This document shows, piece after piece, positions 21,101-61,625 of a stretch of 64,000 nucleotides of DNA. The notes beneath the pieces are model-generated. The model ran no database searches. It worked only from the letters and a program-made list of their open reading frames with translations, and was not told the origin of the DNA. The DNA comes from Lytechinus pictus (lineage: Eukaryota): positions 23,500,001-23,564,000 of the forward strand of contig NC_087245.1 of assembly GCF_037042905.1 (NCBI RefSeq). The letters are read 5' to 3'. Positions within the stretch are counted from its first letter, which is position 1. Each line of letters opens with the position of its first letter. The translations under genes were made by a program, and so were the position numbers.

Positions 21101-21442
21101 AGGGATCGTTTAACATTGTGAGAAGCTGATTTAAAAAATTCTCAAATTAAGATGAATTATGTTTATGAGTCTATGTACTTGTTCTAAGAAACCCTGGAAA
21201 TCATCTTTAGTTTGAATGAAAAGTTGTTAGTAGGTAGGAAAATGTGATTATATTAGAACTCGTCTACTAGACGATCTCCCAAATTACTGAGACATCCCGA
21301 TTTGAAAATAAAATTGTATGCCTCCCTCTGCGTTGAGATCGTAACGGACACGCAAGCGAGAACTGTCAATCAACCAACAGTGAATGGGGGCAAGGCCGCT
21401 CCGGTCGGCATGTAAACATTACATGCAGCGCATGTTCTCTGC
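21101..21442. mobile_element. Left part of a Kolobok-type element interrupted by the giant foldback
   Basis: TTAA|AGGGATCGTTTAACATTGTGAG terminus. A matching inverted terminus lies at 59550-59588 and a weaker candidate near 49690-49712. Confidence 0.55.
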
Positions 21443-21469
21443 TATGGGGCGCCAAGTGTCCGCCAGTGT

Positions 21470-22080
21470 ATTCCGTCCAAATCACGGCATTCCGTACACA
21501 AAATGTGTTTTTATTCAGACGAAAATCATTTCGTCATGACGCTTTTTTATTTCGTACACAAAATTTATTTTTTGTCACACAAAATCAATTTCGTCTCGAC
21601 GAAATGCACGAAATCAATTTCGTCTAGACGAAATGTAATTGCGTCCACAAAGTTTATTTGGCGTGCCATACGAAATGAATTTTTATCAAACGAAATGGCG
21701 CACCAAATGTCCGATGGTAAATTCCGTCCAATTCACGCAATTCCGTACACAAAATGTGTTTTTGTTCATATGAAAATCATTTCGTCATGACGCAGTTTTA
21801 TTTCGTATACGAAATTATTTTTTGTCACACAAAATCAATTTTCGTCGAGACTAAATGTAATTGCGTCCACAAAATTAATTTCGTTGCGATGCGAAAATCT
21901 ATTCCGTCGACGAAATCATTTTGTGTCAAAACCACAAAAAAATTTCGTTGACGAAATGATTTTGTGTCAAAACACAAAAAAATTTCGTCGACGAAATGAT
22001 TTTGTGTCAAAAGACAAAAAAATTTCGTCGACGAAATGATTTTGTGTTTTGAGTCTTTTTGACATAAAATCATTTCGTCT
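21470..22080. repeat. Left subterminal repeat domain of the giant element
   Basis: Duplicated block with ~250-bp period (ATTCCGTCCAA at ~21470 and ~21721), then ~38-bp units containing the palindrome TTTCGTCGACGAAA. Confidence 0.85.
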
Positions 22081-23384
22081 CCTCTGTCTCGAAGGGGACA
22101 TAAGAAGGTCGCTGATTGGCTGCACCTTGCTCAAGCTGTTTTCGCTCCGGGACGATCACACTTTTTCACAGCTCAGATTGGCATGTTGGTGAACTTATTA
22201 GCTTAGATTTCACGTTATTCATTCCTACATGAGCTGCATACAACTGCTCTAATCGGTAGGATGTGGACGGACATTGCATTCGTAAGTTCAGCTATGTTTT
22301 CGACTTCAAAATTACGTTGAAAAAAAAATGGGAATTCGTTAGTCGTTACCAAACTTGCATTTGCAAAAAGCTGTGTAACAATACTAGTCCCGTGTATTTA
22401 AGTTTATGTACTGTAGTCAGCAGACCATTGGGGGGGGGGTCTTTTCTGCACACCTAAAAAGTAAAATGGTTATGAATTATACAGGTTGAAGATATTTAGG
22501 CTTTGATCTTAATAAATAATGTAAAATTCATTCCGAGCAAAATGCTGAAAATTTCATTGAAATTGGATGACAACAAAAGTTATTGATGCCTGGCCGTACA
22601 TGCCGTATGAAACTCTAACGTTAGGCTACTCCACTCAGTGACTCACGCGTATTGCGAGGGTTAGTATTAGTATACTAACCTCGCACCATTAACCACGTTT
22701 GGCAATGGATTTCTAACTAGTGGGTCACGCGTGCTGTGATCCCACTTCTGGTGTCCACAACACACAACTTCTATTGCTTGATTTTTCTGTGCGCGGCGGC
22801 ATGTAATGAACCCTTGAGTGACTAGGCCTAAAAAACTCAGGCAATGGTTCGTATAGCCAGCCATTAAACACTCCACTATAGCCTATAGGTGAAGCGGAGG
22901 TAAGCAGTAGTGAAGTGTAGTGGAGCTTACACGAACCATCGCCTGCATGCTGTACTAGTATAGTTGTGGTAGCCTTGGCCCTGGCCCCACTCATTACTAG
23001 TTCGAGGTTAGTTGCTACATATAGACAGTTGCTACACTACAGTACATGTATTATTATAGACTATAGTACTAACCTCGTACACCGAACTGCATTTGGCCCT
23101 GGATTTCTGTGAAGTTGGCAAATATCGCTTCATTACAATACAGAATTAATATTTGCCGAAACTCCTCGCTACTCATCGGGGCGCTTTGCGGTGAGTAGCC
23201 ATAATACAAAAAGTCAATAGTATATTTTTAATTAAATCAAAATCATATTAAAAAAAAAGCAAATTTGATTACTTTGGAGTTTGGACTAGAAAGTGACTTC
23301 GCGTGTCTCTTCTTTTTACGCAAAGAAAAGGAAGCCTGATGGTGGCGCTAATAAATTTCACAGCCTTGATTCAGGCTCGCTTCA

Positions 23385-24223
23385 AATGCAGCTCCTCGGT
23401 AATTATGCCCCCGCAGACAAAGTCCGGAGGGGGCATAAAGCGTTGCCCCTGTCCGTTGATTCGCCCGCCCCCCACTCGGTTTCCGCACAATAAATCGAAA
23501 TATATTTCGATTTATATATATTGGTTAAAAAAAAATATGTTGTGTAGGTACATGACACCATAGTACAGGCTAACTTTGAATTCGGAGTCTGCAGGTCCAA
23601 GGTCACAGCTCATGAAATATCCGAGTTGGTTTCCGCATGATGACTTATGAAATATTCAACAGATTTATAAAATTAGGGTGTGTAGGTAGATGACACCATA
23701 TACAGGCTAAGTTCGGAGTCGGCAGGTCAAAGGTCACGGCTCATTAAATATGCAATTTAGTTTCCGCATGATTACTTATGAAATATTCTACATATTTAAC
23801 CGAATTTGAGTGTGTAGGTAGACGACACCAAAATACAGGTCAAGTTCGAATTCGTAGTCGGCAGGTCAAAGGTCACGGCTCATTAAATATGCAATTTAGT
23901 TTCCGCATGATTACTTATAAAATATTCTACATATTTAAACAAATTTGAGTGTGTAGGTAGATGATACCAATACAGGCTAAGTTCGAATTCGGAGTATGCA
24001 GGTCAAAGATCACAGCTCCTTAAAGATATCTTATGAAATATTCAACAGATTTTTTAAAAATTTGGGTGTGTAGGTAGATGATGATGATGATGATGCATAG
24101 CATTTTTACAGCGGCGTAACAGGGTTCGGTGGCCAGGGGGGGGGGGGGGCAAGAGCCAAAAATTTCCCGGTCATATCATGGTATGAATAGGCGTAATGGT
24201 GTAATAAGGCGACTATTTTGAGA
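23385..24223. repeat. Single left-arm copy of the unit amplified x4 in the right arm (HINE-like 5' end plus ~120-bp subrepeats)
   Basis: TTATGCCCCCGCAGACAAAGTCCGGAGGGGGCATAA head followed by tandem GCAGGTCAAAGGTCAC-containing units; reverse complement of the 44277-47228 units. Confidence 0.85.
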
Positions 24224-25735
24224 AGGCCAGAATTTATCTTTAAAAAAAGTTGCGAGCGAGCGAAGCGAGCGAGCAATTTTTTTTTAACCTTTTTAATACA
24301 AAAATCCAATTTTGTGATATATTTTGACATGATATCCAGATAATAAATTTATTCAATTCTTCTCTCTTTAGATTCCTTTTTTGTCACGGTGGTCTGTACG
24401 CCACTGTGAAGAGGATTCTTTGCGGCAGTAGCGTGAAGAGTAAAAAACAAAACAAAAAAACAACGAGGAGCGCAGTATAGAACATGTGCCAAAAGGCTGC
24501 TTTATATATATAAGTCCTGAGCGAGCGAAGCGAGCGAGAAAAAAAATCAACTTTTCATGAGAATCTAACTTTGAGCTATTTTTTTAACATATTCAGTAAT
24601 TAAAATCATATCCTACAATACTTTTCCAACAAAAAAGGAGGTAATTCCTCCTTTTTTTGTTCTTGGCTGTAGAACTTTTTGGGGCCATGGCCCAACCCTT
24701 CCATACGCAGTGCTGTGCGTTTGGGGTCCAGGGCAGAGCCCCAGGAACTTCTTGATATCAAAGCCATTTAAACCTTGCAGAAATCCCCAATTTTAATCAA
24801 ATCGCAGGCATAATATAGCTTTTACACAACACATTTATTCAACCCAGTTGCGTAATGAACCAAATATTTTGAGGGGGCAAAACATAGAAATGTGGGAAAA
24901 ATTTGTAAAAAGTCGCCAGTGTGCAAAGCGAGCTGGAAAAAATTGCCTATTGAAATTACAATCTAATTATGTGATAGATTTTTCCATTATATTCAGCAAA
25001 TAACACATTTCATTGTTTCCATTCATTTCATTATACGTCATGCACGTTGTCTCCTATAAAATTTCTTTTATATCCTCTTGGGTGTGGAACCACGACCCCC
25101 CCCCCCCCCCCCGCCTGTATGGCAGTGATTGAACGTGATTGAACGGGGGCGTTATAGAGCCATTTGAAGATTATAAATGAAGAGCCCCTACTTTGTGGGG
25201 TCTGGGGCAAAGCCCCGGTAGCTTATTTGCATAAAATTTAGAAAACTTATAACACAATGTTGTATGCAGTCCATCTTTCTTCCCGCTCTTTAATTTCAAT
25301 CATCAGCAGCCCGGTCGTGTTATATTTTTTCTTGTTCCTTTTCTTTGTTTTCTAATTTAGCTCTTGACTAATTACATTCTACCTTCGTTTCCCGCTATTG
25401 TTTGCCATTTTGTCATCTTTTAATTTATTTCCCACCGTGCTATTGCATTACATAGGCCCTTTTCTCAATGATTTGTTCTTTTTCAAATGTAAATTCTATC
25501 GTACATTTTCCCGCTTTCCTCCCTTTTCTACTAAAAACAGTTTTTTCTTCATTGTCTTTTTCCTTTTCTCTTTCCATTTCCCTTTCCTCCTTTCCTTTTC
25601 CCCTTTCCTTCCCCTTTCCCTTTCTTTCTCCCTCCTTTTTTTCTTTTTCCCGTTTTTTTTATTTTCCCGGTGAAATCCGCCAGGGGGGGGGGCAACTTGC
25701 CCCCCCCTGCCCCCCCCCCGCCTGTTACGCCACTG
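24109..25735. mobile_element. hAT-type MITE shared by both arms (left copy)
   Basis: CAGCGGCGTAACAGG...CCTGTTACGCCACTG; 8-bp TSD CATTTTTA / CATTTCTA; mirror copy at 42784-44388. Confidence 0.85.
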
Positions 25736-26025
25736 CATTTCTATAGCACCATATATCTGTCAAAGACATTCAAAGGCATATTGGAGGAGCCAGCCAATCT
25801 GGGTCGCCTACAAGGGCGCGCACACAGAACTGTGACCCGCAGGTCTCTCCTCCCGATAACTGGTTGGGGGAATGCAGGTGGACCACTACACAGGGTCATT
25901 TAATATGCGAGTTGGTATCCTCATAATAACTTATAAAATTTCAACAGATTTTTTAAAAATTTGGTGTTTAGATAGATGACACCATAATACATGCAAATGA
26001 GCCTCGAAATTCGAAAATTATAATA

Positions 26026-26610
26026 TTAAAGCAATATTGACTGGCCTCGGGGCGATACGACATATATCGCCCAAACTAGATTTATATCGCCCGAGTCGTA
26101 GACGAGGGTGATATCAATTTAGTGATGGCGATATATGTCCTTTCGCCCCCAGGCCAGTCAATATTGCTATTATTAACCAAATCAGAAATCTAGAGCAAAA
26201 ATCGTTAAAATTTAGATGTTTTAAATTTTTAGAATGAGAATCTACTTTCTCATGTTGAGCAGACTGGGCCTCTGAACTTTACCATTGTGACGTAGGTGAA
26301 ATGACGCGTCCCTGCATGGCCAGGCCGCAGTATCCAGCGTTGTCTCAACTTGATTACCATTATGACGTATAGCACTGCGCGGTTCAAGGACGCGTACAAC
26401 TTAACAACGCGTAGAATACCCGGATGTTAGCGCTGCCTTTTATTGCCCGCTACATTTCCACGCATTTTCTCATTGACTTTTCTGAGCGGGCAATAAATTG
26501 GGCCCGTGGATAAACAATTGGAATTTTATTGACCGGCCATTTGATCCCAGTCTTAAGCAGGCAACAATGTTTCAAAGTTGCCCTGCTCAGATGTCTGATA
26601 CGGTTAATAA
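26026..26610. mobile_element. Left-arm-specific element with an internal region complementary to both termini
   Basis: Absent at the mirror site (~40660). 26143-26167 is complementary to the left end (26031-26055) and the adjacent 26171-26186 is complementary to the right end (26594-26609). Confidence 0.7.
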
Positions 26611-27424
26611 TACATAATAATTCATGGAAAATGAATTATATTGCACACAAGTGGGATAAATCATTCAATAGTAATTGTAATGCACAGAATTATAACAAGT
26701 GTTGGTAAAACATCACAAAACCATTCATTTTAAAGTAGTAAAATAATTGAATTGACAAAGATTCTACCACTTCAGGCCATCCATAATTTGACTCATACTC
26801 GTTGCTTTCAGACCCTTATCAAGATTTTGATAAATTCTCTCTCTAATATATGCATAGAGTTTATAAAATCGTGTGTTTCGGTATCTAAAGAGTTTATTCA
26901 TGATGATAATATTTTGATGGTGTTTGGAATCCTAAAAACCTGTATAATTATCATCATTTTAGGAAGAAAGCCTGTATGGTTTACTTAAACTATTCAAATT
27001 TGATATCTGGGGATACCCATCTCAATGTCCACATACATGTGATTATTTTTTGTCATGAAATGAATTACTGATAATTTCATTTCCTCAGCAATTTAATGCC
27101 CATGTCTGCATGTTTGAGTATGTTTTATGCATATTTCGCCACTGCTATTATTTTGATAGGATGTATTTCCAAATTCATCACAATAATTGTAAGTTTTATC
27201 ATAATTTTACTTTTTGAAAATTATGCTATTTTTGTTCCACCAATAGTATCAATATGACGATATCAATGGATTCTAGTTAATCCTTTTGGGTAAGATTGGA
27301 ACTAACTCTGTGTTTAATAGATAAAGATATATGACTAACTTGTCCAGGTAATGAGAAATGGGCCCCTGCTGAGTAGGCCTAGAGTTTTTATGCCCCCGCA
27401 GACGAAGCCCGGAAGGGGCATTAA

Positions 27425-28198
27425 CCCTAAAATGGCCGGGGGGGGGTTGAATCAACCCCCCCCCCCCTCAACATTTTCTGCGATCATTCCGCCGCGCGAA
27501 ATTTTTTGACCGCGCCACTCACATAGTTTATACTTTTAAGTCTCGCGCATCTTTTGAGACCAAATTTAAGACCCCCGGGTACGCGGTTCCGAAATTACGC
27601 AACATTTTGTAAGTGCATGTCAGACCAAAAATTGTTCCAAAACGTGATTTAGTGTACAAAGTCAATGCAAATTGAGTTTTCTCATCTTATTCATAAAGAT
27701 ATGATTATTTTTACTTTATACAGCTGAAAGCAATTGATTTTAGCATAATTATGCTTCAAAAAAGTTGTGCAATAAATCTGGTGAAAAAAACAAAGAAAAA
27801 CAAAAGGTTGAAAAACAAAGAAATACATAAGAAATTCATAAAACAATAAAATACATAGGAAATTGATTTCCAAACCGAAGTTTTTTTCAATTGCCATTGT
27901 TAAGAATGCTACAAAGAATATTTTTTACCAAAAATTAGCATTCTAGGAGCTTTATTTAGTGAATTAGAGCAAAAAGTATGATTTATGCATAAATTAGCAT
28001 AATTAATTCATATAAAATGAAATCTCATTATTTTGGAAAATTTTACCATACAGCCTTGTAGATTACATCGCACACTACCAGCGTGCAAATTTTTGCGGCG
28101 CTCGCGCGATCGGCGGCTGAGAACTCAGGGGGGGGGTTGAATCAACCCCCCCCCCCCCCCGGCCACAGAACAGCCAAAAAAGCCCGGCCTAGTTAGGG
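27425..28198. mobile_element. piggyBac-type MITE, left-arm-specific
   Basis: TTAA|CCCTAAAATGGCCGGG ... CCCGGCCTAGTTAGGG|TTAA; the right arm has a single TTAA empty site (~39455). Confidence 0.9.
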
Positions 28199-28468
28199 TT
28201 AAGCGTTGCCCCTGTCCGTCCCCCCACTTGGTTTCTGCGCAATAACTCGAAAAATATTTAATGGATTTAAAAAAAATTTGGTGTGTAGGTAGATGACCAC
28301 AAAATACAGGCTAAGTTCGAATTCGGTGTACGCAGGTCAAAGGTCACATCTCATTATATATGCAAGTCGGTTCAAAGGTCTAAATTTGTTAATTAATTAT
28401 ATATATGCATATTGGTTTCTGCATGATATTAAGTTCAAACATATTGAATGGATTTCTGATCGCGTTAA

Positions 28469-29056
28469 AGGGGAATCCAGCCTTGGCCATTAAATGTTGT
28501 GTTGGGAAGGAGAAAAATAAATTAAACAGAATGGTGAAAGTTTGAAAGAAATCGGACAAGCAATAAGAAAGTTATAGCTGCTTTAAAATTGAGATCACTA
28601 ATACTATGTAGATTTCAAATTGGCAACTGGATAAGTAAATTATGACAAGGGCAAGGACAACTTTCCCATAGGCCATGTACTTTATTATCAGGGATTAGTG
28701 GTTTTCTCCTAAGTACCCATTCCCCTGGGGCATTAATCTAAATATAACCCAGGTAGTATATTGTTTTATGTCCTCATGAAAGAAAAATATTAATTTGAAA
28801 TAAAACTTTTGGGAAAAAAAAATCACATTTTCGACATAATATGAATTGGAGTACATGGAAGAGTAGTCCTTGCCTTACATCCCATATGCAGCCAATTTGA
28901 AGTCTCCATGGGTACAGTGATTACCAATATTTACAACTTTTAAAAATTCATAACTTTCTTGTTGTTTGTCCAATATTGTTCAAACTTTCACCTATCAACT
29001 TGTCTGATTTTTCTTTTCCTTATAAAAACAATTTTTTATTTGGGTTGGATTCCCCT
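28469..29056. mobile_element. Kolobok-type MITE, family B, left-arm-specific
   Basis: TTAA|AGGGGAATCCAGCC ... GGTTGGATTCCCCT|TTAA; empty TTAA site in the right arm (~39188); near-identical copy at 55516-56110 in the opposite orientation. Confidence 0.9.
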
Positions 29057-29146
29057 TTAAGCGGGGGCATCCGTGTCCTTTGGACACGTCAAATTTTCTT
29101 AATCATGTGTAATTGATTTTATGACATGTGTTTACATTTGCTGCAG

Positions 29147-29356
29147 ATTCCCATTCAGCCGTTGGACTGAACCTGTACTGTCTGTAACACAGTATGGATG
29201 GTCAATATGAAGCGAGCTTCATTGAATTCCTCCAAGAGCTCTGTACTCCGTTCTGATCATTTTGAAGATGGTTGCTTTGACAGGACTGGGCAAGTGACTC
29301 GTCTTAGACAGGATGCTGTCCCAACCATGTTTGATTTCCTGCCTCGTCTTCAGAAG
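29147..29356 (+). pseudogene. THAP zinc-finger exon (decayed), left arm
   Basis: Bounded by CAG| and |GT. Encodes FPFSR..[frameshift]..VWMVNMKRASLNSSKSSVLRSDHFEDGCFDRTGQVTRLRQDAVPTMFDFLPRLQK, with the THAP FP, W, (C)SxHF and AVPTxF motifs. The zinc-ligand Cys reads Arg (CGT). Confidence 0.85.
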
Positions 29357-29574
29357 GTACAGTAGATCTATATCATACATGTGTTCTAAAGAAATATTTT
29401 CTCTGTATTATCTACCTTTGGTTTGATAGAACATTGCTTTAAATATTCCATTTTCAGTAGCCAAATAGAGATGAAAATTATCCTATTTGGGAGGGTAACC
29501 ATGGACCTGGGCCTATACTGTGTATTTACAGTAAACTCTTACTAAATGAACAAATATATTAAAAATTTGGTTTA

Positions 29575-30956
29575 CCCTACATAATAATCCTGGGCTACTT
29601 TGAGATTGCATAGCCCGGGGGGGGGGCCTTTTTGGTCCCCCTCTTCAGATCTCCATGCACTGTCGATCGCAACGAAAACCGATGCACACGTCACCATCAA
29701 TGTAATCTGCAAGCATGGAGCTCGACATTTTTCACGATAAATCCGTCGCGCGAATTTTTTTGACCGCGTCACTCGTTGACTTTTTACTTTCAAGTCTTGC
29801 GCAACTTTTGAGACCAAAATTGTGACCCCCAGGTACAGGGTTCCGAAATTACGCAAAATTTCGTAACTGCATGCAGAACCAAAATTGCTCAAAAACGTGT
29901 ATTTGTGTACAAATCCAATGCAAGTAGTGTTTTTAGCCAAAATTTATAAAATGTATAATATTTTTCCTTTAACTGCTCAAAATCAATTAATTTTATCTTG
30001 TTTATGATAAAAAAAAACGTCTCCGACAATTTCCATTGAAAAAACCATAAAAAACAAAAAGTCGAAAAACACAGAAATACATAAGAAATTTAGAAAACAA
30101 TAAAATACATAAAAAATGAATGTGATGTTGACAACTTTTTTAAAGATTAATTTAATCAGATGCCTATAAAGAGTAAGTGAAACAAAAATGAGCATTTTAG
30201 GGGCATTATTTTGTTAATTAGAGCAAACTTATGATTTTACGCATTAATTAACATAGCAATGAGCAATGAGATTTTTCGCAGATTTTGATATTATGGTATT
30301 GTAGATAATGCCATGGGTAACGCGCGTGCCAATTTTCGTCGCGATTGCGAGATCAACGGCCGAGATCATAAGGGGGGCTGAATCAGCCCCCCCCCCCCCC
30401 GTCTTCTTAGGCATCGAAATAGCCCAGTCTATTTAGGGTTAAAGATAAATCCCTAAATAATTCCCCAAATTCTATGATTTCTAAACAAATGTGCTCCTGA
30501 AGAAATGGTAAATCTAATTTCTACTTTTATGTATTTTATTGCATGGTTCTATAATTCCATACGTATTTCTTTGTTTTGGGGCCTTATGTATTTTATAGTT
30601 TTTTTTCAATGGGATCACTTCGTGGCACTATTCCAATTATAAAAAGCAAGATTTGATTATTTTCAACCAATTAGTGCAAGAATAATGATGCATTTGTCAA
30701 TTATGACTGAAAATAGAATTTCCATTGGATTAAATATGTATACAAAATAATATTTTTGAGCAATTTTCGGTCCAACATGAACTCATAAAATGTTGCGTAA
30801 CTGCGTATCTGGGCGTCTCGAATTTTGTCTAAAAGCTCTGCGAGAATTGAACGAAAAAAAAAATGGTGGTACCTCGTTTCTCATTGTGGACTTATCGTGA
30901 AAAATGTGGATGGGGGGGCTTATTAAGCCCCCCCCCCCCCCCGGGGCTAGATAGGG
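29575..30956. mobile_element. piggyBac-type MITE shared by both arms (left copy), intronic to the THAP pseudogene
   Basis: TTTA|CCCTA ... ATAGGG|TTAA; mirror copy at 37103-38675. Confidence 0.7.
29723..30438. mobile_element. One-ended piggyBac-type MITE nested in the left arm
   Basis: Ends ...TATTTAGGG|TTAA; body similar to 27425-28198; replaces ~90 bp that are present in the right arm (~38440-38530). Confidence 0.7.
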
Positions 30957-31147
30957 TTAATATATCATCATGAATATTTAAAAAAACATTTATTTTGTTG
31001 CAAGTCACTGGAAAAGGTTTGATTTCTAAATAAATATTATTCTTCATGCATTATCGAATATTTAATTGAAAAATTTAAAGTTATCTTTTCATTCTTGTAT
31101 CTGTTTTTGTTCAATATTTTTTTTTTAAATTCATTCGTCTCGTACAG

Positions 31148-31380
31148 AATTCACCAAACCAAGGAATTCCCCGAAAGAAAGATGTTTTGATTCAGCAAAC
31201 AACCTCCCAGATACTGCAAAGACACCTGTACCAAAGTCTTCAGCACCTTTATTTCTCAAGGACCACTCCTACTCAATATCAGAAAGTCCAAGAGGGGTAA
31301 AGTGGAAGTTAACAGCAATAATGGACTGTATTAAGAACTTGGAGAAGAGGCTGAAAACCACACACGAGAAGTCCCGCCGT
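31148..31380 (+). pseudogene. Downstream exon of the THAP gene: HCF-binding motif plus coiled coil (decayed), left arm
   Basis: Follows a CAG acceptor. One frame reads FTKPRNSPKER...FLKDHSYSISESPRGVKWKLTAIMDCIKNLEKRLKTTHEKSRR. DHSY fits the [D/E]HxY motif followed by a coiled coil, as in THAP proteins. Out of phase by 1 nt with the previous exon. Confidence 0.75.
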
Positions 31381-31664
31381 GTACATTACTTGCTCTTAAG
31401 TTTGGACAAACATAACTTGCAAAACTTTACAACAAATAATTACCCCAATGTGCATTCTGATTATTTAAAATAGCTCAATGAAAATGTTTATCAGTGGGCA
31501 TGTAACAAAAGTGAATTCATTAAATTTGAACGTGTTGCAAAAATGATGTCTTACAGTATATTCATTCTGACTTAGAATGTCAGAAGAAAAAAAGTTTGTG
31601 AAAAGTAGGAATGACGGCAAGATGACAGAAGAATAGAACAGGATAGAGCAAGGGGGACAGATAA

Positions 31665-32266
31665 AGGACAAGTCCACCCCAAAAATTGTTGATATGAATA
31701 AAAAGAGAAAAATCCAACAAGCATATAACACTGAAAATTTGATAAAAAATCGGATGTAAAATAAGAAAGTTATGACATTTAAAAATTTTGCTAAATTTTA
31801 CAAAAGAGTTATATGCACATTCTGTACACAGTCGGTATGCAAATGAGGAGACTGATGACGTCATCCACTCACTATTTCATTTGATATATAGAATAAGGTA
31901 TATTCTAATTTTCTCCTTGTCATGTTAAACAAAATTTTATTCCTCCCTGATCATGTGGAATTAGCATTATTCAATACTTTTTTGGTTCAGTAAAGTTTGT
32001 CCTTATGGTAAAATCTGTAAAAAATGAAATATTGTATAATTCAAACAATAAAAAACAAAATAAACAGTGAGTGAGGGACATTATCGACTGTCTCATTTGC
32101 ATGTCACTGAGTTGTGAATATTTTTGTTTTGTGAAAAATAAGTGAAAATTTAAAATGCCATAACTTTCTTAGTTTACATCCGATTTTGATGAAATTTGCA
32201 GCGTTATGCTAGTTCGATTTTTCTCAATTTAACTGAACCAACAATTTTCTTGGGTAGACTTGACCT
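31665..32266. mobile_element. Kolobok-type MITE, family A, left-arm-specific
   Basis: AGGACAAGTCCACCCC...GGGTAGACTTGACCT; absent at the mirror site (~36395). Confidence 0.85.
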
Positions 32267-32919
32267 TTACTAATGAGCTGTTGGATAGAGACAAAAATAT
32301 GAATTGAGATTGAGGGTGATAGAGAAAGAGAGACAGGTGTGGGGGAGCCTTTGATGAATGCCTGAGAAGGCGAACATTACCATAATTTTTTTTTGAGGAT
32401 TTGGACAGTAATGAATAGTACATGTTTTTTCTGTTGGTATTTCTCAAAATATGTGTATGTTGTATGTAATGAAATGGGTATAATCCTTTTGTAAGATACA
32501 CTCATTCAGAAAATATTAACTAAACAAAAAAAAAAGCCAAATTATATTTTACTTATTTTCAACTGTTCAGACACTCTCATATCAAAAGTACCCCCCCCCC
32601 CCCCTCATTTCAAGGTATTGGAGAGAGAGAGAGGTTGGATGAGAAATGGATTGGCTGTCTGCAGAAAAAATGCAGGGGGAGCAAAACATTTTTAGGATAT
32701 GTTCAAGGGAGCGAAGCGACCGAGCAGAAAAATTATTCTGGGGATATATGTGAGAGAGCAAAGTGACGAGAAGAACAAATGCAGGGGCCAAAATATTTCG
32801 AGAATATGTGAGAGGGAGCAAAGTGACCAAGCAGAGGTAAAAGGAAAGAGGGACAAAAATTGTGGTATGTGTGAGGGAGCAAAGCATCCGATAAAAAAAA
32901 CCAGAAAGCAGGTCAATCA

Positions 32920-35322
32920 AAATATTTTTCGAATTTGTGCTGGTGCGCGACACGTTCACTCCCGAGCGATAGGGACTTGTTTAAAAATGGCATAGGAAAT
33001 ATCTGTTTTCTATAATCATGGTATACTGATAATATGGTAGAATTTAGGTGTTGTAAGAGTTAAATTCTGAATGAACTGTATTGGCTGGTTAGACATGCGC
33101 AGAGGATTATTTGTCTTTATCCATTTTTATTTTCACATTTTTCTTTTGTTTGATTTTATTTTCCAGGGGGTAAGCCCCCTCCCCCCCTCCCCCCGTTCCT
33201 GTGGATACCAATGGGGCGGGGGCTTGGAATAGTGCAAGTTAGAGAGGGTGAATCTGAACTTTATAGATATCAAAAGAGAAAGAAAGAATTGTAAAATGAA
33301 AATGAATAAAAACAAAGATAGAGAGGGGGAGAGTGAGAAAGCAGGTGAACTTTCGAGGGGCATTAAAAAGTCTCAGATTAAAAACAACATTTTTGTTTTT
33401 GTAATTGTTTATTTTATTTACCCAGGGTCAGTCAAAATATTTTGGAATATGTGCGAGGGAGCGACACATTCACTCCCGAGCGGTAGGGACTTGTTTTAGG
33501 AAACATGCGTTTTCTAAGAATGGTAAACGCATATTTTAAGGTAAATTGCCAATTCGTCTACTGCCATACAGTCCACTCACCACATGGTCTACCTTCATTT
33601 TGTCTATAAATGCCATTTCGTCCAATAGCAATTTCGTTTACCACCCATTTAGTCTAATTCTATTAAGGCTAATGCCATCTCCATTAATCAGTTCGTCCAA
33701 TGTTCATTTAGTCCAAGCCATGTTGGCTAATATCAGTTGGTCCAATATCCAAATTATCTACCGGATAATTGTCATTTCGTCTATCATTTCGTCCACCACC
33801 CATTAGGTCCAATAATCAGTTTGTCTAACAACCAAATCGCCCAGTTCGTCCAATTCTCAAATCGTCCAATAGTCATTTATTCTAACAGCCAATTGGTCCA
33901 ATAGCCATGTTGTCTAATATAAATATAATGCATCATCCGGGGGGGGGACGAAATTACTTCTTAAATATACCTTGAAATTCCTGAAGATAAAAAAATATAT
34001 AACTAGGCCTGCTATCAGGAATGGAATGATGCGGTACAGCATGCAGCCTCCTACCCATCCCCCCTGCTCTCTCTACCACATCACGCACACAAAAGGGGGA
34101 ATTGGAGTGGTTAAAAATTATAAAATTGAAATAGGGTCCTTTGATTTGGAATTTACCCTCATTTCTTTTTTTTAACAAATGCACACCTAAAAATGATAAT
34201 CATCACTCATCATATAACAATGATAATAATTGTAATAATAGTAATTAATGATAGTACTAATAAACAAGAAATGTACTATAATAATAACGATAACAGCCTT
34301 GGACGGTACAAAAAAATAAAAAAGAGAGAAAAGTGGGAAAGGATGGGGAGAACATTACATAAAAACATAAAATGTATTACAATGGAGCTTAAAAAAACAC
34401 TAATAAAAGATTAATCAAACGACAGGTGTAAATTAATAACAAATCACAAAGCAACAGGAGTCGAGGTAGCAATACACAGGCACCAAACTAGAAGGACTGC
34501 TAGTAGTAGACTATTCCTATTTGATTGTAGACGAAACAAATATTGACCGGGATGGCAATTGGACCCATTGATGATTAGACCAAATGATTGTTAGATGAAA
34601 TGGGTTTAGACTAAGTGACAGTGGATCAACTGCAGTTGGACAAAATAGAACATAGACAAAATGTAAGTAGACTAAGTGGTCAGTGGCCATTTGCCCTTAG
34701 ACCAATTGGCTATTGGACTAAATGGTAATAGACATAATGAAAATGGACAAAGTGGCTATTGGACAAATTGGCCAAAAATGCAATTAGACCAAATGAAAGT
34801 AGACAAATTGGTTATTAGACGAACTAGCTATTGGACAAAATGGTAATTGGAAGATGTGGAAAAGGAACAACTTATGGTAGATGAAATGACATACCATTTG
34901 GTGAGTGGACAAAATGGCAGTAGACGAAATGGCAATAAACCTATTATAGGCCTACGGTAGAATTTAGGTGTTTTACGAGTCAAATTCTGAATGAACTGTA
35001 TTGGCTGGTAAGACATGCGGCAAGGATCTGTGTCTCTTATCCATTTTTATTTTTCACATTTCTTTTGTTTGATTTCAGTTTTCAGGGGAAGCCCACCCCC
35101 CCCCTCCTGTGGAAGCCAGTGGGGCTGGGGCTTAGAATAGTGCACGATAGAAAGGGAAAAACCGAAACTTTAGATATCAAAAGAGAAACAAAGAATTGTA
35201 AAAATGAAAACAAAGATAAAGAGAGAGCGGGTGAGCTTTCGAGGGGCATAAGAAAGTCTGAGATTAGAAACATCATTTTTATTTATTTCTTTATTCATTT
35301 ATTCTGTTTTATTTACCCAGGG
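32920..35322. repeat. ~510-bp tandem duplication next to the loop, second copy split by a foldback MITE
   Basis: 32920-33425 recurs as 33430-33539 plus 34942-35322 (e.g. GGTAGAATTTAGGTG, AATTCTGAATGAACTGTATTGGCTGGT). Confidence 0.75.
33540..34941. mobile_element. Foldback MITE with tandem-repeat TIRs (MULE/TU-like)
   Basis: GGTAAATTGCCAATTCGTCTACTGCCAT ... ATGGCAGTAGACGAAATGGCAATAAACC; arms built from ~15-16-bp CATTTCGTCCAA-like units; degenerate ~8-bp flanking duplication; absent at the mirror site (~35650). Confidence 0.75.
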
Positions 35323-36678
35323 TAGCCTCTTCAGTACAAAACTGCTTTACAAGAGAGCACTGCACATCTAAATGTATTTATCAGCATTAATAGTTCATAC
35401 ATAATTTTTTAAATGAGCGCGAAGCTCAGGATAATGTTTGATATTCCAACCAGAAAAATTTGCATTTTAAGCATATAATCCCCTGCCCCATTGGCATCCA
35501 CAGGAGGGTGGGCCTTTCTGCCTGGAAACTGAAATCAAAAGAAAAGTGTGGAAAATGGATGAAAGACAAAGATCCTCTGCGCATGTCTTACCAGCAAATG
35601 CAGCTCATTCAGAATCTAACTCTTAGAGCACCTAAATTCTACCGTAGGCCTACAATATGTGTTTACCATGCTTAGAAAACGCATATTTCTTAAGCTATTT
35701 TTAAACAAGTCCCTACTGCTCAAGAGTGAACAAGTCGCTTCCTCACACATATTCGAAAATATTTTAACCTGCTTTTTTTTATCGGTTGCTTTGTTCCCTC
35801 ACATACCCCAACAATTTTATGTCCTCTACATTTCTTCTGCTTGGTCACTTCGCTCCCTCTCACATATTCCCCAAATCTCTTGTCCCTTGCATTTTTCTTC
35901 TCTGTCATTTTGCTCTCTCGCATATATTACAAAATAATTTTCTGCTGTCGCTTCGCTCCCTTGCACATATCCCAAAAATGTTTTGCCCCCCCCCCCCGTA
36001 TTTTTTTTTCTGCAGACAGCCATGTCCCGTTCATACTCTCTCTCCAATACATTGAAATGATGGGGGGGGGGGGCACTTTGGATATGAGAGTTACTGAACA
36101 ATTGAAAATCAGTGAATTATTTGGCTTTTTTTTCTTTTGTTTAGTTAATATTTTCTGTGTGAGTGAAACTTCCGAAGGATTATACCGTTTCGTTACATAA
36201 AACATACAAGTATTTTGAGAAATACCAACAGAAAAAAAAAACCCAGATTCTTCCTGACTGTTCAAATCCTTAAAAAAATTATGGTAATCTTCGCTTTCTC
36301 AGGCATTGATCACAGGCTCCCCCAACACCCGTCTCTCTTTCTCTATCACCCCCATTCTTAATTCATCTTTTTGTCTCTATCCAACAGCTCATTCATAACT
36401 ATCGCCTTGTTCTATCCTGTTCTATTCTTCTGTCAGCTTGCTGTCATTCCTACTTTTCACAAACTTTTTTCTCTTCTGACATTCTAAGTCAGAATGAATA
36501 TACTGTAAGACATCATTTTTGCATCACGTTCAAATTTAATGAATGCACTTTTGTTACATGCCCAGTGGTAAACTTTTTCATTGAGCTATTTTAAATAATC
36601 AGAATGCACATTGGGGTAATTATTTGTTGTAAAGTTTTGCGAGTCATGTTTGTCCAAACTTAAGAGCAAGTAATGTAC

Positions 36679-36894
36679 ACGGCGGGACTTCTGCTGTGTG
36701 GTTTCAGCCTCTTCTCCAAGTTTTTAATAGTCCATTATTGCTGTTATCTTCCACTTTACCCCTCTTGGACTTTCTGATATTGAGTAGGAGTGGTCCTCGA
36801 GAAATGAAGGTGCTGAAGACTTTGCAGTATCTGGGAGGTTGTTTGCTGAATCAAAACGTCTTTCTTTCAGGGAATTCCTTGGCTTGGGTGAATT
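36679..36894 (-). pseudogene. Mirror copy of the THAP-gene DHSY/coiled-coil exon, right arm
   Basis: Reverse complement of 31148-31380 with a small deletion and substitutions. Confidence 0.75.
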
Positions 36895-37102
36895 CTGTAC
36901 GAGATGAATGAATTAAAAAAAAGAAACATATAAGAAATATTGAACAAAAACAGATAGAAGAATGAAAAGATAGCTTTAAATTTTTCAATTAAATATTCGA
37001 TAATACATGAAGAATAATATTTATTTAGGAATCAAACCTTTTCCAGTGACTTGCAACAAAATAAATGTTTTTTTTTTATTAATATTCATGATGATATATT
37101 AA

Positions 37103-38675
37103 CCCTATCTAGCCCCTCGGGGGGGGGCTTACTAAGCCCCCCTCCCATCCACATATTTCACGATAAGTCCACAATGAGAAACGAGGTACCATTATTTTTT
37201 TTCCGTTCAATTCTCGCAGAGCTTTTGAGAGACCAAATTCGAGACGCCTAGATACGCAGTTACGCAACATTTTATGAGTTTATGTTGGACCAAAAATTGC
37301 TAAAAAATATTATTTTGTATACATAAGTAATCCAATGGAAATTCCATTTTCAGTCATAATTGACAAAGGCATCATTATTCTTGCACTGATTGGTTAAAAA
37401 TAATCAAATCTTTGCTTTTTATAATGGGAATAGTACCACGAAGTGATCTCATTGAAAAACAAGTGGAACGCCTCTGGCAGTCTCGCCTGCATTACGCAAT
37501 TTAATATAGCAGCAGTGCTAACTTTGAAAACTACTATAAAATAATCATTCACAAGAACATCATTCATATAATGACATAATACCACGTTCATTGACCATAA
37601 ATGACATTTGAACGGAGACTTAAAAGACTGTCAACTACACCCATGTCCACATTTCATTCACTCTATCCATGAACTTTCAAAGTTATGATGGCACTTCAAC
37701 AATTACCCCAACATGGCCTAAGTTTATTGACCTTAACTGACCTTTGACTTGGTTTTGTGACCTGAAACTCACAGGGGATGTTCAGTGATGCTTGATTACT
37801 CTTATATCCCAAGTTTTATGAACTAGATCCATAAACTTTCAGAGCTAGGATGGTAATTTAACATATACCCCCAACACGGCCAAAGTTCATTGACCTTAAA
37901 TGACCATTCACCATGGTCATGTGACCTGAAACTCGCACAGGATATTCAGTGGTACTTGATTAACCTGATGTCCAAGTTTCATGAACTAAATCCATAAATT
38001 TTCAAAGTTATGATAGTAATTCAACAAATACCCCCAACTTGACCAAAGTTCATTGACCCTAAATGACCTTTGACCTTGGTCACGTGACCTGAAACTAAAG
38101 CAGGATGTTCACTAATACTTGATTAACCTTATTCCCAAGTTTCATGAACTAGGTCCATATACTTTCTAAGTTATGATGTCATTTCAAAAACTTAACCTTA
38201 GGTTAAGATTTGATGTTGACGCCGCCGCCGCCGTCGGAAAAGCGGCGCCTATAGTCTCGCTCTGCTATGCAGGCGAGACAAATACCAATAAAATACATAA
38301 GGCCCCAAAACTAAGAAATACGTATGGAATTATAAAACCAATAAAATACATAAGATTAGAAATTTGATTTACCATTTTTTTCAGGAGCACATTTGTTTAG
38401 AAATCATAGAATTTGGGGAATTATTTAGAGATTTACCTTTAAAGCAGAGAATTCTATATTTAGGCATAAATTAGCATTATTAATTTATTAAAAATAAATT
38501 TAAATTCTGTAAAATCAGCGATACACCCTTAGCTCCATGCTTGCAGATTACATTGATGGTGACGTGTGCATTGGTTTTCGTTGCGATCGACGGAGATCTG
38601 AAGAGGGGGACCAAAAAGCCCCCCCCCCCCCACGGGCTATGCAATTTAAAAGTAGCCCAGGATTATTATGTAGGG
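37103..38675. mobile_element. piggyBac-type MITE shared by both arms (right copy)
   Basis: TTAA|CCCTATCTAGCCCC ... TAGGG|TAAA; mirror of 29575-30956. Confidence 0.7.
37459..38280 (-). mobile_element. HINE/Helentron-like element, right-arm-specific
   Basis: GTCTCGCCTGCA / TGCAGGCGAGAC subterminal inverted repeats; ~170-bp tandem TGACCTTTGACCT-containing units; inserted in an A/T run without a clear TSD; absent at the mirror site (~30600). Confidence 0.8.
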
Positions 38676-38895
38676 TAAACCAAATTTTTAATATATATTT
38701 GTTCATTTAGTAAGAGTTTACTGTAAATACACTGTAAAGGCCCAGGTCCATGGTTAGCCTCCCAAATAGGATAATTTTCATCTCTATTTGGCTACTGAAA
38801 ATGGAATATTTAAAGCAATGTTCTATCAAACCAAAGGTAGATAATACAGAGAAAATATTTCTTTAGAACACATGTATGATATAGATCTACTCTAC

Positions 38896-39101
38896 CTTCT
38901 GAAGATGAGGCAGGAAATCAAATATGGTTGGGACAGCATCCTGTCTAAGACGAGTCACTTGCCCAGTCCTGTCAAAGCAACCATCTTCAAAATGAGCAAA
39001 ACGGAGTACAGAGCTCTTGGAGGAATTCAATGAAGCTCGCTTCATATTGACCATCCATACTGTGTTACAGTATCTGTTCAGTCCAACAGCTGAATGGGAA
39101 T
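38896..39101 (-). pseudogene. THAP zinc-finger exon (decayed), right arm
   Basis: ORF 38887..39120(-) reads ...VWMVNMKRASLNSSKSSVLRFAHFEDGCFDRTGQVTRLRQDAVPTIFDFLPHLQK; same splice sites as 29147-29356. Confidence 0.85.
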
Positions 39102-39519
39102 CTGCAGCAAATGTAAACACATGTCATAAAATCAATTACACATAATTAAGAAAATTTGACGTGTCCAAAGGACACAGATGCCCCCGCTTAACGCGATCAG
39201 AAATCCATTCAATATGATTGAACTTAATATCATGCAGAAACCAATATGCATATATATATAATTAACAAATTTAGACCTTTGAACCGACTTACATATATAA
39301 TGAGATGTGACCTTTGACCTGCGGACTCCGAATTCGAACTTATCCTGTATTTTGTGGTCATCTACCTACACACGAAATTTTTTTTTAATCCATTAAATAT
39401 TTTTCGAGTTATTGCGCGGAAACCAAGTGGGGGGGGGACGGACAGGGGCAACGCTTAATGCCCCCTCTGGGCTTCGTCTGTGGGGGCATAAAAACTCTAG
39501 GCCTACATGTACTCAGCAG

Positions 39520-40897
39520 GGGCCCGTTTCTCAACACTTGGACAAGTTAGTCATATAACTTTATCTACCAAACACAGAGTTAGTTCCAATCTTACCCAAA
39601 AGGATTAACTAGAATCCATTGATATCGTATACTATTGGTGGAAAGTACATGAGACGTAGCCTTAGTCACAAAATAGCATAATTTTCAAAAAGTAAAATTA
39701 TGATAAAACATAATAATAATAATAATAATCTGCTTTTATATAGCGCTTAATACATCGGAATGACGTGTCTAAGCGCTTTACAGATATATTATTAGCCCGG
39801 TGATCGGACTCAATCAGTCATTCCCGCACACAACGTGTGCACATCCTCCACTCCTTCGGGAGTATTTCAGTCAGTCGCCGGTGAGGCGCACACTGTACTG
39901 GACAAGCTACAATGACTTTCACATCCTACCGGGTACCCATTTAGCACCTGGGTCGAGAGTGGCAAAGTGTGGATTTACGCCTTGCCAAAGGACGCCAGAC
40001 CGCGGTGGGATTCGAACACACGTCCCTCTGATTACAAGAGTGAGAACCACTACATCACAGCTCCTCCAAACTTACAATTATTGTGATGAATTTGGAAATA
40101 GATCCTATCAAAATAATAGCAGAGGCAAAATATGCATAAAAAATACTCAAACATGCAGACATGGGCATTAAATTGCCGAGGAAATGAAATTATCACTAAT
40201 TCATTTCATGACCAAAAAAAAAATCACATGTGGACGTTGAGATGGGTACCCCCAGATATAAAATTTGAATAGTTTACGTAAGTAAACCATGCAGGCTTTC
40301 TTCCTAAAATGATGATAATTATACAGGTTTTTAGGATTCCAAACACCATCAAAATATTATCATCATGAATTGTTCAACTCTTTAGATACCAAAACACACA
40401 ATTTTATAAATTCTATGCATATATTAGAGAGAGAATTTATCAAAATCTTGATAAGGGTCTGAAAGCAACGAGTACAAGTCCAATTATGGATGGCCTGAAG
40501 TGGTAGAATCTTTGTCAATTCAATTATTTTACTACTTTAAAATGAATGGTTTTGTGATTTTTTACCAACACTTAATATAATTTCTGTGCATTACAATTAC
40601 TATTGAATGATTTATCCCACTTGTTTGCAATAAAATTCATTTTCTATGAATTATTACGTAATATTATAATTTTCGAATTTCGAGGCTCATTTGAATGTCA
40701 TAGTCTACCCACATGATATCACTACGTCATTAAGAAAGAAGTTATGACAGGTTCGGAGATCTGTCATAACTATTTCGTCAAGTTGTCCCCGATCTTGGCA
40801 AAGAGGGATTCGTGAAACAGTTAGTAGACAAGTAGCTCACTATCTCCAATTTAGTTAAGAAGTTAGAAGACTTATGACGGTGTTGAGAAACGGGCCC
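39520..40897. mobile_element. PIF/Harbinger-type non-autonomous element (complete in the right arm, one-ended in the left)
   Basis: CAG|GGGCCCGTTTCTCAACAC ... GTGTTGAGAAACGGGCCC|CAG: 18-bp TIR and 3-bp CAG TSD. Confidence 0.75.
39710..40067 (-). mobile_element. tRNA-derived SINE with an L2-type tail, right-arm-specific
   Basis: Minus strand: head with B-box GTTCGAATCCC, central CCCAGGTGCTAAATGGGTACCCG, tail AAGCGCTATATAAAAGCAG(ATT)n; absent at the mirror site (~27190). Confidence 0.85.
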
Positions 40898-42783
40898 CAG
40901 TCTACACAAGCAGAACCAAACAGAATCAGTTTGCCACACTCAAATTCCCAATTTGCGCTTGCATCAATTGTTTAGTTACATACCTTTCCCATTTATGATT
41001 ACAAAAAGTGCTTAAAATGACAATTTTTTAGGTCAGAATTTTTAGCTCGCGCTTCGTGTTCCCATTCTTGAAATATGTACCGTCTTCATGGGTAAACAGT
41101 CCTTAATAGGTCCCTTTTCGATCATGCTAGAACACTTGTTAAATATTCTGTTCATGCTTGGCATTCTCAGTAATTATCTAGTTACATACGCATCTTGTTC
41201 AGGATCACAAACAGTGCCCAGAATGTTAAATTTCAGGACAAAATAAATACATGAAAGTTCAAAAAAAGAAAGAAAAAAATATTCGCCTGCGCTTCGCGCT
41301 CGCACTTTTTATATAAGGCCTATGAGATTATTTCATATTGATGTTGCTTTATAAGAATAAAGCTAAGAAATGACTGATCGGGGAAAATATAGGTGAAGAT
41401 AATTTTGGGCCCCATCCCCTATTGGCGAAAGTCTGATACACCCTTGTGACACATACACACACAGAGAAAAAAATAGTGCCCCCCCCCCCTGAAAAAGCAA
41501 GGACCCCCCGGTGCCCCCCTCCCCAGAGAAATAATCCTAGCTACGCCACTGGACTGATTCCTTTATCCCCAAACCACTTATACAAGACAAGCTTATTTCT
41601 ATCCAGGATGTAAATCAGTTCTAGAAAGAGCAATCTGGAAATTTGCCTCTGGCAGGGCCTAGTAGGACACTATAGGTGTTTGATTTGATTGATTTTATTT
41701 CAGCATTTTTTCAACAGAAATAATTAACAAACATAATGTACAACATAAAGAAAAAAATAGTGATACATTTCTTTTTACAAAAATAAATACAAATAATCAT
41801 TCATTTGCAAAAATGTATATAGATAGTATTAGTTTGCAATATTATAAGTTGTACTTTGTACTTTGTTGACTAGACAAAAAAAAATGCTGGAGACCGTTAG
41901 TGTTAATAGGCCTAACGTTATTCCAATACCAACATGATTAAGGGATGCTCCAGGCTGAAGATATTCATAATTGATCATATCTCAAGAAATAGAGTAAAAT
42001 TCACAAAGAAAAATGCTGGAAATTTGATCAAAATCGGATAATAACAAAGTTGTTGAATTTAAAATATTTGCATTATTCCTGTAGATTTCTAGGCATACAT
42101 GAATATTCAGTGGGCAAAATGATGATGTCATAGTCATACCCCCACTTGTTATTTTGTATTTTGTATGAAATTAGGTTTATTAAAAAATTTCCTACAAGTC
42201 ACAATTGGATTGACAACATTTACACCAACTTATTTAATTATAATGGAGACATATCATTTACACATATGACAAAATGAAGCAATTATGATTTCGTGTACAA
42301 TAATAACTGTCAAGGAAAAGGAAAGTGGGGATGTGAAATCATCAGCCCACCTTATGAATATTCATGATGACAATTGTGACATAGACCTAGGGCTAGGCCA
42401 CTCAAGGGTTCATTACATGCCACCGTGAACCAGAAAATCAAGGCACAACGCATGCAACTCTCTTTATGAGCGGATCTCGCATATAGCCATTAGTTTTGAC
42501 CGACTCGATCCTAATTCGATCTTAGCCTGTATTATGGTGTCATCTATCTAAACACCCAATTTTTAAAAAATCTGTTGAAATTTTATAAGTTATTATGAGG
42601 ATACCAACTCGCATATTTAATGACCCTGTGTAGTGGTCCACCTGCATTCCCCCAACCAGTTATCGGGAGGAGAGACCTGCGGGTCACAGTTCTGTGTGCG
42701 CGCCCTTGTAGGCGACCCAGATTGGCTGGCTCCTCCAATATGCCTTTGAATGTCTTTGACAGATATATGGTGCTATAAAAATG

Positions 42784-44388
42784 CAGTGGCGTAACAGGCG
42801 AGGGGGCAAGTTGCCCCCCCTGGCGGATTTCACCGGGAAAATAAAAAAAAAAACGGGAAAAAGAAAAAAAGGAGGGAGAAAGAAAGGGAAAGGGGAAGGA
42901 AAGGGGAAAAGGAAAGGAGGAAAGGGAAATGGAAAGAGATGGGAAAAGAAAACGAAGAAAAAACTGTTTTTAGTAGAAAAGGGAGGAAAGCGGGAAAATG
43001 TACGATAGAATTAACATTTGAGAAAGAACAAATCATTGAGAAAAGGGCCTATGTAATGCAAAAGCACGGTGGGAAATAAATTAAATAAATTAAATAAATT
43101 AAAAGATGACAAAATGGCAAACAATAGCGGGAAACGAATGTAGAATGTAATTAGTCAAGAGCTAAATTAGAAAACAAAGAAAAGGAACAAGAAAAAAAAT
43201 AACACGACCGGGCTGCTGATGATTGAAATTAAAGAGCGGGAAGAAAGATGGACTGCATACAACATTGTGCTATAAGCTTTCTAAATTTTATGCAAATAAG
43301 CTACCGGGGCTTTGCCCCAGACCCCACACAGTAGGGGCTCTTCATTTATAATCTTCAAATGGCTCTATAACGCCCCCGTTCAATCACTGCCATACAGGCG
43401 GGGGGGGGGGGGTCGTGGTTCCACACCCAATAGGATATAAAATAAATTTTATAGGAGACAACGTACATGACGTATAATGAAATGAATGGAAACAATGAAT
43501 TGTGTTATTTGCTGAATATAATGGAAAAATCTAGCACATAATTAGATTTTAATTTCAATAGGCAATTTTTTCCAGCTCGCTTTGCACGCTGGCGACTTTT
43601 TACAAATTTTCCCACATTTCTATGTTTTGCCCCGTCAAAATATTTGGTTCATTACGCAACTGGGTTGAATAAATGTGTTGTGTAAAAGCTATATTATGCC
43701 CGCGATTTGATTAAAATTGGGGAAATCTGCAAGGTTTAAATGGCTTTAATATCAAGAAGTTCCTGGGGCTCTGCCATGGACCCCAAGCGCACAGCACTGC
43801 GTATGGAAGGGTTGGGCCATGGCCCCCAAAAGTTCTACAGCCAAGAACAAAAAAAGGAGGAATTGCCTCCTTTTTTGTTGGAAAAGTATTGTAGGATATG
43901 ATTTTAATTACTGAATATGTTAAAAAATAGCTCAAAGTTATATTCTCATGAAAAGTTGATTTTTTTTCTCGCTCGCTTCGCTCGCTCAGGACTTATATAT
44001 ATATATAAAGCAGCCTTTTGGCAAATGTTCTATACTGCGCCCCTCGTTGTTTTTTTGTTTTGTTTTTTACTCTTCACGCTACTGCCGCAAAGAATCCTCT
44101 TCACAGTGGCGTACAGACCACCGTGACAAAAAAGGAATCTAAAGAGAGAAGAATTAAATAAATTTATTATCTGGATATCATGTCAAAATCTATCACAAAA
44201 TTGGATTTTTGTATTAAAAAGGTAAAAAAAAATTGCTCGCTCGCTCGCAACTTTTTTTAAAGATAAGTTCTGGCCTTCTCAAAATAGTCGCCTTACTACA
44301 CCATTACGCCTATTCATAACATGATATGACCGGGAAATTTTTGGCTCTTGCCCCCCCCCCCTGGCCACCGAACCCTGTTACGCCGCTG
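42784..44388. mobile_element. hAT-type MITE shared by both arms (right copy)
   Basis: Reverse complement of 24109-25735; TSD TAAAAATG on both sides. Confidence 0.85.
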
Positions 44389-61505: not shown

Positions 61506-61536
61506 AATAGTAGTAGTAGTATTAGTAGTAGTAGTA

Positions 61537-61625
<89 letters not shown>

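Follow-up and report, generated by a model that had tools for sequence, protein, structure and literature searches.

What kind of gene gave rise to the two convergent THAP-domain copies found in this part of the Lytechinus pictus genome, and how did the copies come to face each other? We analysed 64,000 nt of contig NC_087245.1 (positions 23,500,001 to 23,564,000; this whole stretch is called the window, and its own numbering is used below). A palindrome of 27,660 bp at 21443-49102, delimited by self-blastn and arm alignment, holds both copies, and each of its arms carries one three-exon THAP gene fragment. We consider it likely that the pair is the 5' end of a P-type transposase gene and has become the cargo of a non-autonomous palindrome of the IS3EU/GingerRoot type. 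What is new here is the first exon of the fragment and its likely P-type origin; a search of the literature, in which Repbase was not covered, found no description of the palindrome or of the THAP fragment in Lytechinus.

The THAP gene fragment and its decay

The exons of the two copies are located as follows.

22221..22281, plus strand: THAP exon 1, decayed, with a phase-2 GTAAGT donor at 22282
29147..29356, plus strand: THAP exon 2, left copy, 210 nt, frameshifted, with RSDHF
31148..31380, plus strand: exon 3, left copy, encoding DHSY and the first half of the coiled coil
36679..36894, minus strand: exon 3, right copy, with a 15-nt in-frame deletion and 2-nt and 1-nt frameshifts
38896..39101, minus strand: THAP exon 2, right copy, 206 nt, with RFAHF
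48325..48339, minus strand: remnant of exon 1 in the right arm, 15 nt, donor intact

Exon 2 is bounded by an AG acceptor and a GT donor in both arms, and an AG acceptor precedes exon 3 in both arms (at 31148 and 36894). The Pfam THAP model (PF05485, cut-off 23.9 bits) matches the left copy with 31.1 bits (E 4e-7) and the right copy with 27.8 bits (E 4.5e-6), in both cases over profile positions 32-87 only. These boundaries and matches bear out a sequence-only reading of this DNA, which had proposed two convergent THAP copies made of the four exon-2 and exon-3 segments and had named a THAP profile search of the right-copy translation as its test. The DHSY motif is present in both copies of exon 3, on which Pfam finds nothing significant; the coiled coil was judged by alignment to relatives.

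The same reading had not found the first exon, and a regular-expression search for a first exon of the form M..CxxC also returned nothing relevant, because the start codon and the first cysteine have been lost. Exon 1 is present on the plus strand. A tblastn search with two relatives locates it at 22221-22279 in two frames, IPT*AAYNCSNR and then GCGRTLH, followed by two bases and the GTAAGT donor, and the phase is compatible with exon 2. A frameshift-tolerant score derived from the 23-residue first exons of 40 relatives reaches 35.1 at this site; the runner-up on the two strands of the window scores 13.3, and the maxima of 20 shuffles are 6.7-19.9. A single-frame hidden Markov model gives 11.4 bits, compared with 2.2-5.9 in 10 shuffles. 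Exon 1 at 22221 puts the start of the gene 778 bp inside the palindrome terminus and gives it a span of about 9.2 kb. Two ATTGG motifs (reverse CCAAT) at 22115..22181 on the plus strand, 40-106 bp upstream of exon 1, are a possible promoter relic.

The claim that the splice sites are intact stands for the AG acceptors and for the GT donors of exon 2, but the GT at 31381 is probably a breakpoint rather than a used donor. It is read through in two of six L. pictus gene models (the other four stop or shift frame earlier), and a contig of run X1 (31154-31615) crosses it. P0038, the closest relative of exon 3 (49% identical), continues in frame beyond this point, and the homology of the left exon 3 to P-type transposases stops at KSRR, in the middle of the coil.

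Both THAP copies are dead. The left exon 1 has ATT where the start codon is expected and a stop at the first zinc cysteine, and it is also frameshifted, being 7 nt short of the 23-residue class; in the right arm a 46-bp deletion leaves 15 nt and the donor. In both copies of exon 2 the frame is lost between the FPFS start and the THAP core, and the cysteine of the CSxHF motif is arginine in both arms, as had been noticed earlier. Exon 3 has 1 nt missing at its start on the left; on the right, 15 nt are missing in frame and then 2 and 1 nt. C2CH ligands in one intact frame are found in neither copy, with the first cysteine a stop (left) or deleted (right), the third an arginine, and frameshifts in addition. 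No protein function is predicted for the fragment, because the C2CH zinc finger is intact in none of its copies. The codon differences between the arms, 2 synonymous and 11 replacement, fit the absence of selection that is expected for such copies.

The broken fragment is multi-copy in the gene models of both L. pictus and L. variegatus. Lytechinus models account for all four matches in one protein search, where those of L. pictus are 92% identical or better, and for six of the eight in another, and the high-identity matches are solely broken multi-copy models. Six distinct L. pictus proteins contain the fragment, and the identical L. variegatus models P0005 and P0033 are each on 13 contigs among the cluster members listed (35 of 44). 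The CSxHF position is Arg in 6/6 L. pictus models and Cys in 30/31 L. variegatus models, one being unscorable, so the change likely accompanied the spread of the entire family within one lineage, beyond the arms of one locus; the earlier view that the decay predates arm homogenisation or was copied by it holds. Exon 2 is of the left-arm type in three of the six L. pictus models and of the right-arm type in the other three. Each of the two types is found with both an NSPK and an SSSK start of exon 3, and the presence of all four pairings points to recombination among copies. All four listed accessions of P0033 sit 1-3 numbers after an accession of the P0001/P0002 clusters, and this order is a weak hint that L. 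variegatus, too, has two relics at each locus.

In the L. variegatus models P0001 and P0002, the dead THAP exon is spliced on both sides to exons that are unrelated to it and absent from the window, and models of this type are chimeric at many loci. NCBI names the models of the fragment 'THAP domain-containing protein 2-like', with at least 21 L. variegatus LOC identifiers for near-identical broken products. A 2026 preprint based on EchinoBase annotation finds it surprising that L. variegatus has 85 THAP genes, and the broken fragment models may account for part of that number (PMC13228809).

Origin of the fragment: transposase or host gene

A phmmer search with the L. pictus proxy P0003 gave 353 matches at E <= 0.001, of which the best 150 were examined. 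Among the matches listed, PF12017, the helix-turn-helix (HTH) domain of P transposases, is found in 20 of 148 scanned proteins, and a model of the DHxY-to-HTH linker made from 16 of these 20 carriers matches 99 of the 146 hits that are not Lytechinus models. Twenty-one of those 99 extend at least 95 residues past the break point; PF12017 is found in 16 and PF21788 in one more, showing that 17/21 relatives that extend far enough past the coiled coil go on into P-transposase domains. The proxy P0003 itself matches linker model positions 1-43, and P0038 keeps a transposase-type linker past the break. A profile search among long proteins gave 29 matches, 22 of them with PF12017 and none named as echinoderm, and the nearest long relatives bear PF12017, PF21787 or PF22824.

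A tree made by a quick search (92 of 154 candidate rows kept, 98 columns, L. variegatus row P0037 left out) places P0003 in a six-row group (SH-aLRT 88) with the hagfish protein P0205, which has THAP, PF12017 and THAP9_C, and with P0047, whose 11-member hagfish cluster includes the PF12017-bearing P0199. Turtle THAP6 (P0145) and the wombat THAP protein P0105 lie outside this group. When a profile of 14 P-type relatives was run against all six frames of the window, exons 2 and 3 were matched in both arms, and no remnant of the HTH, RNase H DDE or GTP-binding regions was matched past profile position 224 of 981 (best independent E-value 1.6). The fragment resembles the THAP9 and P-element transposases in having a THAP domain, a linker and a coiled coil at the leucine-zipper position, as these are described (PMC7776569, PMC10983969). 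Unlike them, it is cut before the HTH, is without the RNase H, GTP-binding and C-terminal domains, and has its C2CH finger destroyed.

Several observations weigh against a P-type origin. Over the region, identity to the nearest relatives that bear a transposase is only about 40%, and the top blastp match (100 versus 98.6 bits) is P0043, a 222-aa pipefish protein without PF12017. Most of the listed relatives end before PF12017 and so could be host genes, and host THAP6 follows the linker model to position 73. The alignments behind the linker model and the long-protein search are partly PF12017-positive, which biases their counts toward the P type. The key branch of the tree is unstarred, at its value of 88 from a quick search of 98 columns. 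An intact echinoderm donor was not found in the protein searches, and the best match in the Protein Data Bank is THAP domain-containing protein 2 (E 6.3e-9).

This last match, like the NCBI name of the models, fits an alternative in which the same carrier took its cargo from a domesticated host THAP gene (THAP2/THAP6-like) by capture in the manner of Pack elements. THAP, a D/EHxY motif that binds HCF and a coiled coil directly after it are the layout of 7/12 human THAP proteins (10.1101/813352), which agrees with the earlier description of this architecture as that of host THAP factors, and GingerRoot elements are reported to take host exons together with introns (PMC6839031). Against this alternative, no intact Lytechinus or other named echinoid parent was found among 18 + 15 candidates or among 20 representatives identified by name, and an N-terminal CxxC is found in 0/37 Lytechinus models retrieved. 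Unlike host THAP factors, the fragment is multi-copy and frameshifted and gives no sign of purifying selection. The tree sets the proxy apart from THAP6 and P0105, and the nearest clusters are multi-copy with ragged ends (11 hagfish, 5 tick members), as transposons are. We regard capture of a host gene as possible but unlikely, and favour the P-transposase origin over it clearly.

The sequence-only reading had offered two options, captured host-gene cargo or the relic of a nested THAP-bearing transposon. A transposon relic is favoured, but as cargo: no P-type ends and no 8-bp duplication were seen by eye around the fragment, so that strict nesting is not supported. P elements differ here, having such ends and a target duplication of 8 bp in the account used (PMC7776569). 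Of the host-gene option, the cargo status is kept and the host donor is disfavoured.

A Kolobok-type donor was also considered and rejected, as no Pfam-scanned relative was read as Kolobok-type; the distant relative P0070 has HTH_Tnp_4. Another hagfish protein, P0040, has one THAP domain and 11 matched stretches that repeat the DHSY/coiled-coil module.

The palindromic carrier

The layout of the palindrome is as follows; its arms were defined by self-comparison (21443-33225 versus 49102-35477, about 11.8 and 13.6 kb).

21437..21442, no strand: left target-site duplication CTCTGC, 6 bp
21443..33225, plus strand: left arm, terminus TATGGGGCGCC, with arm-specific insertions (self-blastn, arm alignment)
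21500..22085, plus strand: subterminal array, repeats with GACGAAAT core
32272..33225, plus strand: inner arm segment, an older layer, mirrored at 36393-35477
33226..35476, no strand: central spacer with diverged repeat modules
35477..49102, minus strand: right arm, end GGCGCCCCATA, with its own insertion at 37462-38277 and extra tandem units of about 700 bp at 44296-47145
49103..49108, no strand: right target-site duplication CTCTGC

Arm symmetry stops exactly at TATGG (from 21443) and CCATA (to 49102), the only TATGG..CCATA pair of these termini in the window, and the perfect 6-bp direct repeat CTCTGC abuts both arm ends. The subterminal array includes 2.0 units of 29 bp at 21578-21635 and 3.7 units of 40 bp at 21901-22047, and we infer that it is a putative transposase-binding region. 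No remnant of a P transposase was found in the central spacer, and an Rfam search of 21000-49500 returned 0 families.

IS3EU families are described with TA..TA ends and, in most cases, target duplications of 6 bp (PMC10045372), and the fungal members have TAYGG..CCRTA ends with a 6-bp target-site duplication (PMC12730594). The palindrome has both the TA..TA termini and the 6-bp target duplication, and, filed on its ends alone, it is probably a non-autonomous IS3EU/GingerRoot-type element. Among the 36 stop-to-stop open reading frames (ORFs) of at least 100 aa, no long frame is recognisable as an IS3EU transposase, and no IS3EU profile was run. Intron-bearing gene-fragment cargo, usually without a transposase, is a further likeness: the gene fragments carried by GingerRoot copies are reported to include introns, and the DDE motif is kept in 6/22 of these copies (PMC6839031). 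The difference lies in size and layout. GingerRoot terminal repeats are given as 100-150 bp and the elements as 3.9-12.9 kb (PMC6839031), whereas the element studied here measures 27.7 kb, its arms of 12-14 kb far exceed those repeats, and its cargo is doubled because it lies inside them. We read the THAP pair as probable non-functional cargo, not as a new gene, and its carrier as an exceptionally large representative of an element type already known.

Foldback elements do exist in sea urchins, namely the TU elements. The whole palindrome could be regarded as a foldback of the Galileo type, in the P superfamily, with the THAP fragment being the element's own transposase gene within extended terminal repeats. 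The position of exon 1, 778 bp inside the terminus, would be a fitting place for an element's own gene, and Galileo copies are described in which repeats of 4.2-4.7 kb, having recruited internal sequence, make up nearly the entire element (PMC4168063); here too the long arms make up almost the whole element, and internal sequence and nested elements have been taken in. However, a 6-bp duplication and TA..TA ends stand against the 8 bp of P and the 7-8 bp reported for Galileo (PMC7776569, PMC4168063), the arms exceed the 4.7 kb reached by Galileo repeats, and the carrier ends and the cargo differ in superfamily. Symmetry ends exactly at T..A, and an 8-bp target duplication of the P/hAT type was rejected, as it requires a mismatch and ends moved by one base. 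We therefore give a Galileo-type foldback very little credence.

For the IS3EU/GingerRoot-type carrier, we propose that a P-type gene segment from promoter to coiled coil would have been placed about 780 bp inside an IS3EU end, and that the captured segment would have lost everything from the HTH domain onward. One arm may then have been copied to the other end as a foldback, through repair or a template switch, so that the two copies came to converge, and IS3EU transposase from an autonomous partner, acting in trans, could have spread the palindrome as a unit. Divergence of only 1-5% in the outer arms would be maintained by conversion between the arms and among copies, against the 14.5% retained in the inner 1 kb.

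Arm substitution rates, with columns near gaps left out, rise inward. There are 4 substitutions in the terminal 398 bp and 2.1% up to 22221, followed by 1.3% at 22267-23467, 3.2% at 23669-25997 and 2.9-5.3% over 26605-31653 (one 153-column piece has 7.2%); the inner segment 32272-33225 differs from its mirror 36393-35477 by 14.5%. A chained piece at 23529-23693 with 11.9% was ignored, as it matches non-orthologous tandem units. Because divergence rises inward and all exon-2/exon-3 type combinations occur in the L. pictus models, the outer arms were probably homogenised by conversion. The left arm also has insertions of its own.

27425..28198, no strand: insertion in intron 1, CCCT..AGGG, TTAA duplication, a piggyBac-type miniature inverted-repeat transposable element (MITE), with an empty site in the right arm
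28469..29056, no strand: insertion in intron 1, AGGGG..CCCCT, TTAA duplication, with a further copy at 55512-56114
31654..32260, no strand: MITE, with copies at 14757-15364 and 63380-63991

The insertion at 28469..29056 is presumably a Kolobok-like MITE. The arm-specific insertions, including the TTAA-flanked pair, postdate the arm duplication. The arms thus form a datable record, with 1-2% substitutions near the ends, 3-5% further in and 14.5% in the core, together with arm-specific insertions and recombinant copies, on which conversion inside a giant palindromic transposon can be tested directly.

The independent insertions and the 1-5% substitutions between arms indicate long residence, as would be expected if the palindrome were a local inverted segmental duplication at a single site that was never mobile as a unit, and no second copy of the element terminus is found in the window. 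The perfect 6-bp direct repeat at the exact arm ends and the presence of both left-type and right-type exon 2 among the L. pictus models argue against such an origin, which appears extremely improbable.

Several other features of the arms were observed. The right-arm-only insertion at 37462-38277 includes a 163-bp tandem array of 3.3 copies, and the arms contain a 139-bp tandem array (23541-24024), with three extra units of about 700 bp at 44296-47145 on the right. About 0.6 kb at 25998-26604 on the left is replaced by 1.85 kb of non-homologous sequence at 40667-42521 on the right. The terminal ORF at 48755-49351, for which Pfam gives nothing significant, is a reading of a repeat array.

Expression and neighbouring features

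RNA reads from about 6% of each of two runs were mapped over 20600-33400, and the depths were not used as copy numbers. Exon 1 lies in a bin with a depth of 0-0.04 and exon 2 in one with 0.02-0.24; the 15 joints listed, out of 237, include none between exons. Eight contigs are listed for run X1, a run of unrecorded type. One of them stops at 22281, its successor begins at 22252, and a third begins at 29327; these positions match the 30-base overlaps that a graph branching exactly at the donors of exons 1 and 2 would produce, and they suggest that some copies of the family are spliced at a low level. Any product from the MVNMK start would be without the zinc finger.

These contig ends, and the DHSY motif retained in both window copies, would be compatible with inverted P-transposase 5' ends being kept for regulation, either as a KP-like repressor or HCF-1 sponge or as a source of hairpin RNA. 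The KP repressor is a truncation to the 5' part of the P transposase gene. The fragment would likewise be truncated to the transposase 5' part; unlike KP, its C2CH finger is destroyed. Its layout also resembles Mu killer, described as a partial inverted duplication of a transposase gene that comprises the 5' part (PMC3440606). The loss of the finger, the predominance of replacement changes, the RNA depths of 0-0.24x and the lack of a joint among those listed argue against a regulatory role, and a live target element with more than about 55% identity was not found. Such a role seems highly improbable. An extension of the Mu killer analogy, in which an IS3EU foldback would spread inverted P 5' ends with a promoter in two sea-urchin genomes and their RNA would silence P-type transposons in trans, making it a mobile Mu killer in an animal, is a speculation that we rate as distinctly improbable.

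The segment 25731-25895, present in both arms, has about 400-fold strand-biased RNA reads with loose ends, including a GAT/CAT-repeat tail. It is probably a piece of a highly expressed retroelement, and the reads likely come from other loci.

Outside the palindrome, a 164-aa open frame at 54629-55123 on the plus strand, for which Pfam gives nothing significant, presumably resembles the C-terminal end of a LINE reverse-transcriptase protein. An older inverted pair at 19403-20765 (about 420 bp, 78% identity) lies directly left of the palindrome, a 56-bp tandem array is located at 4953-5285, and a long TAG/TAT microsatellite occupies 61500-61750.

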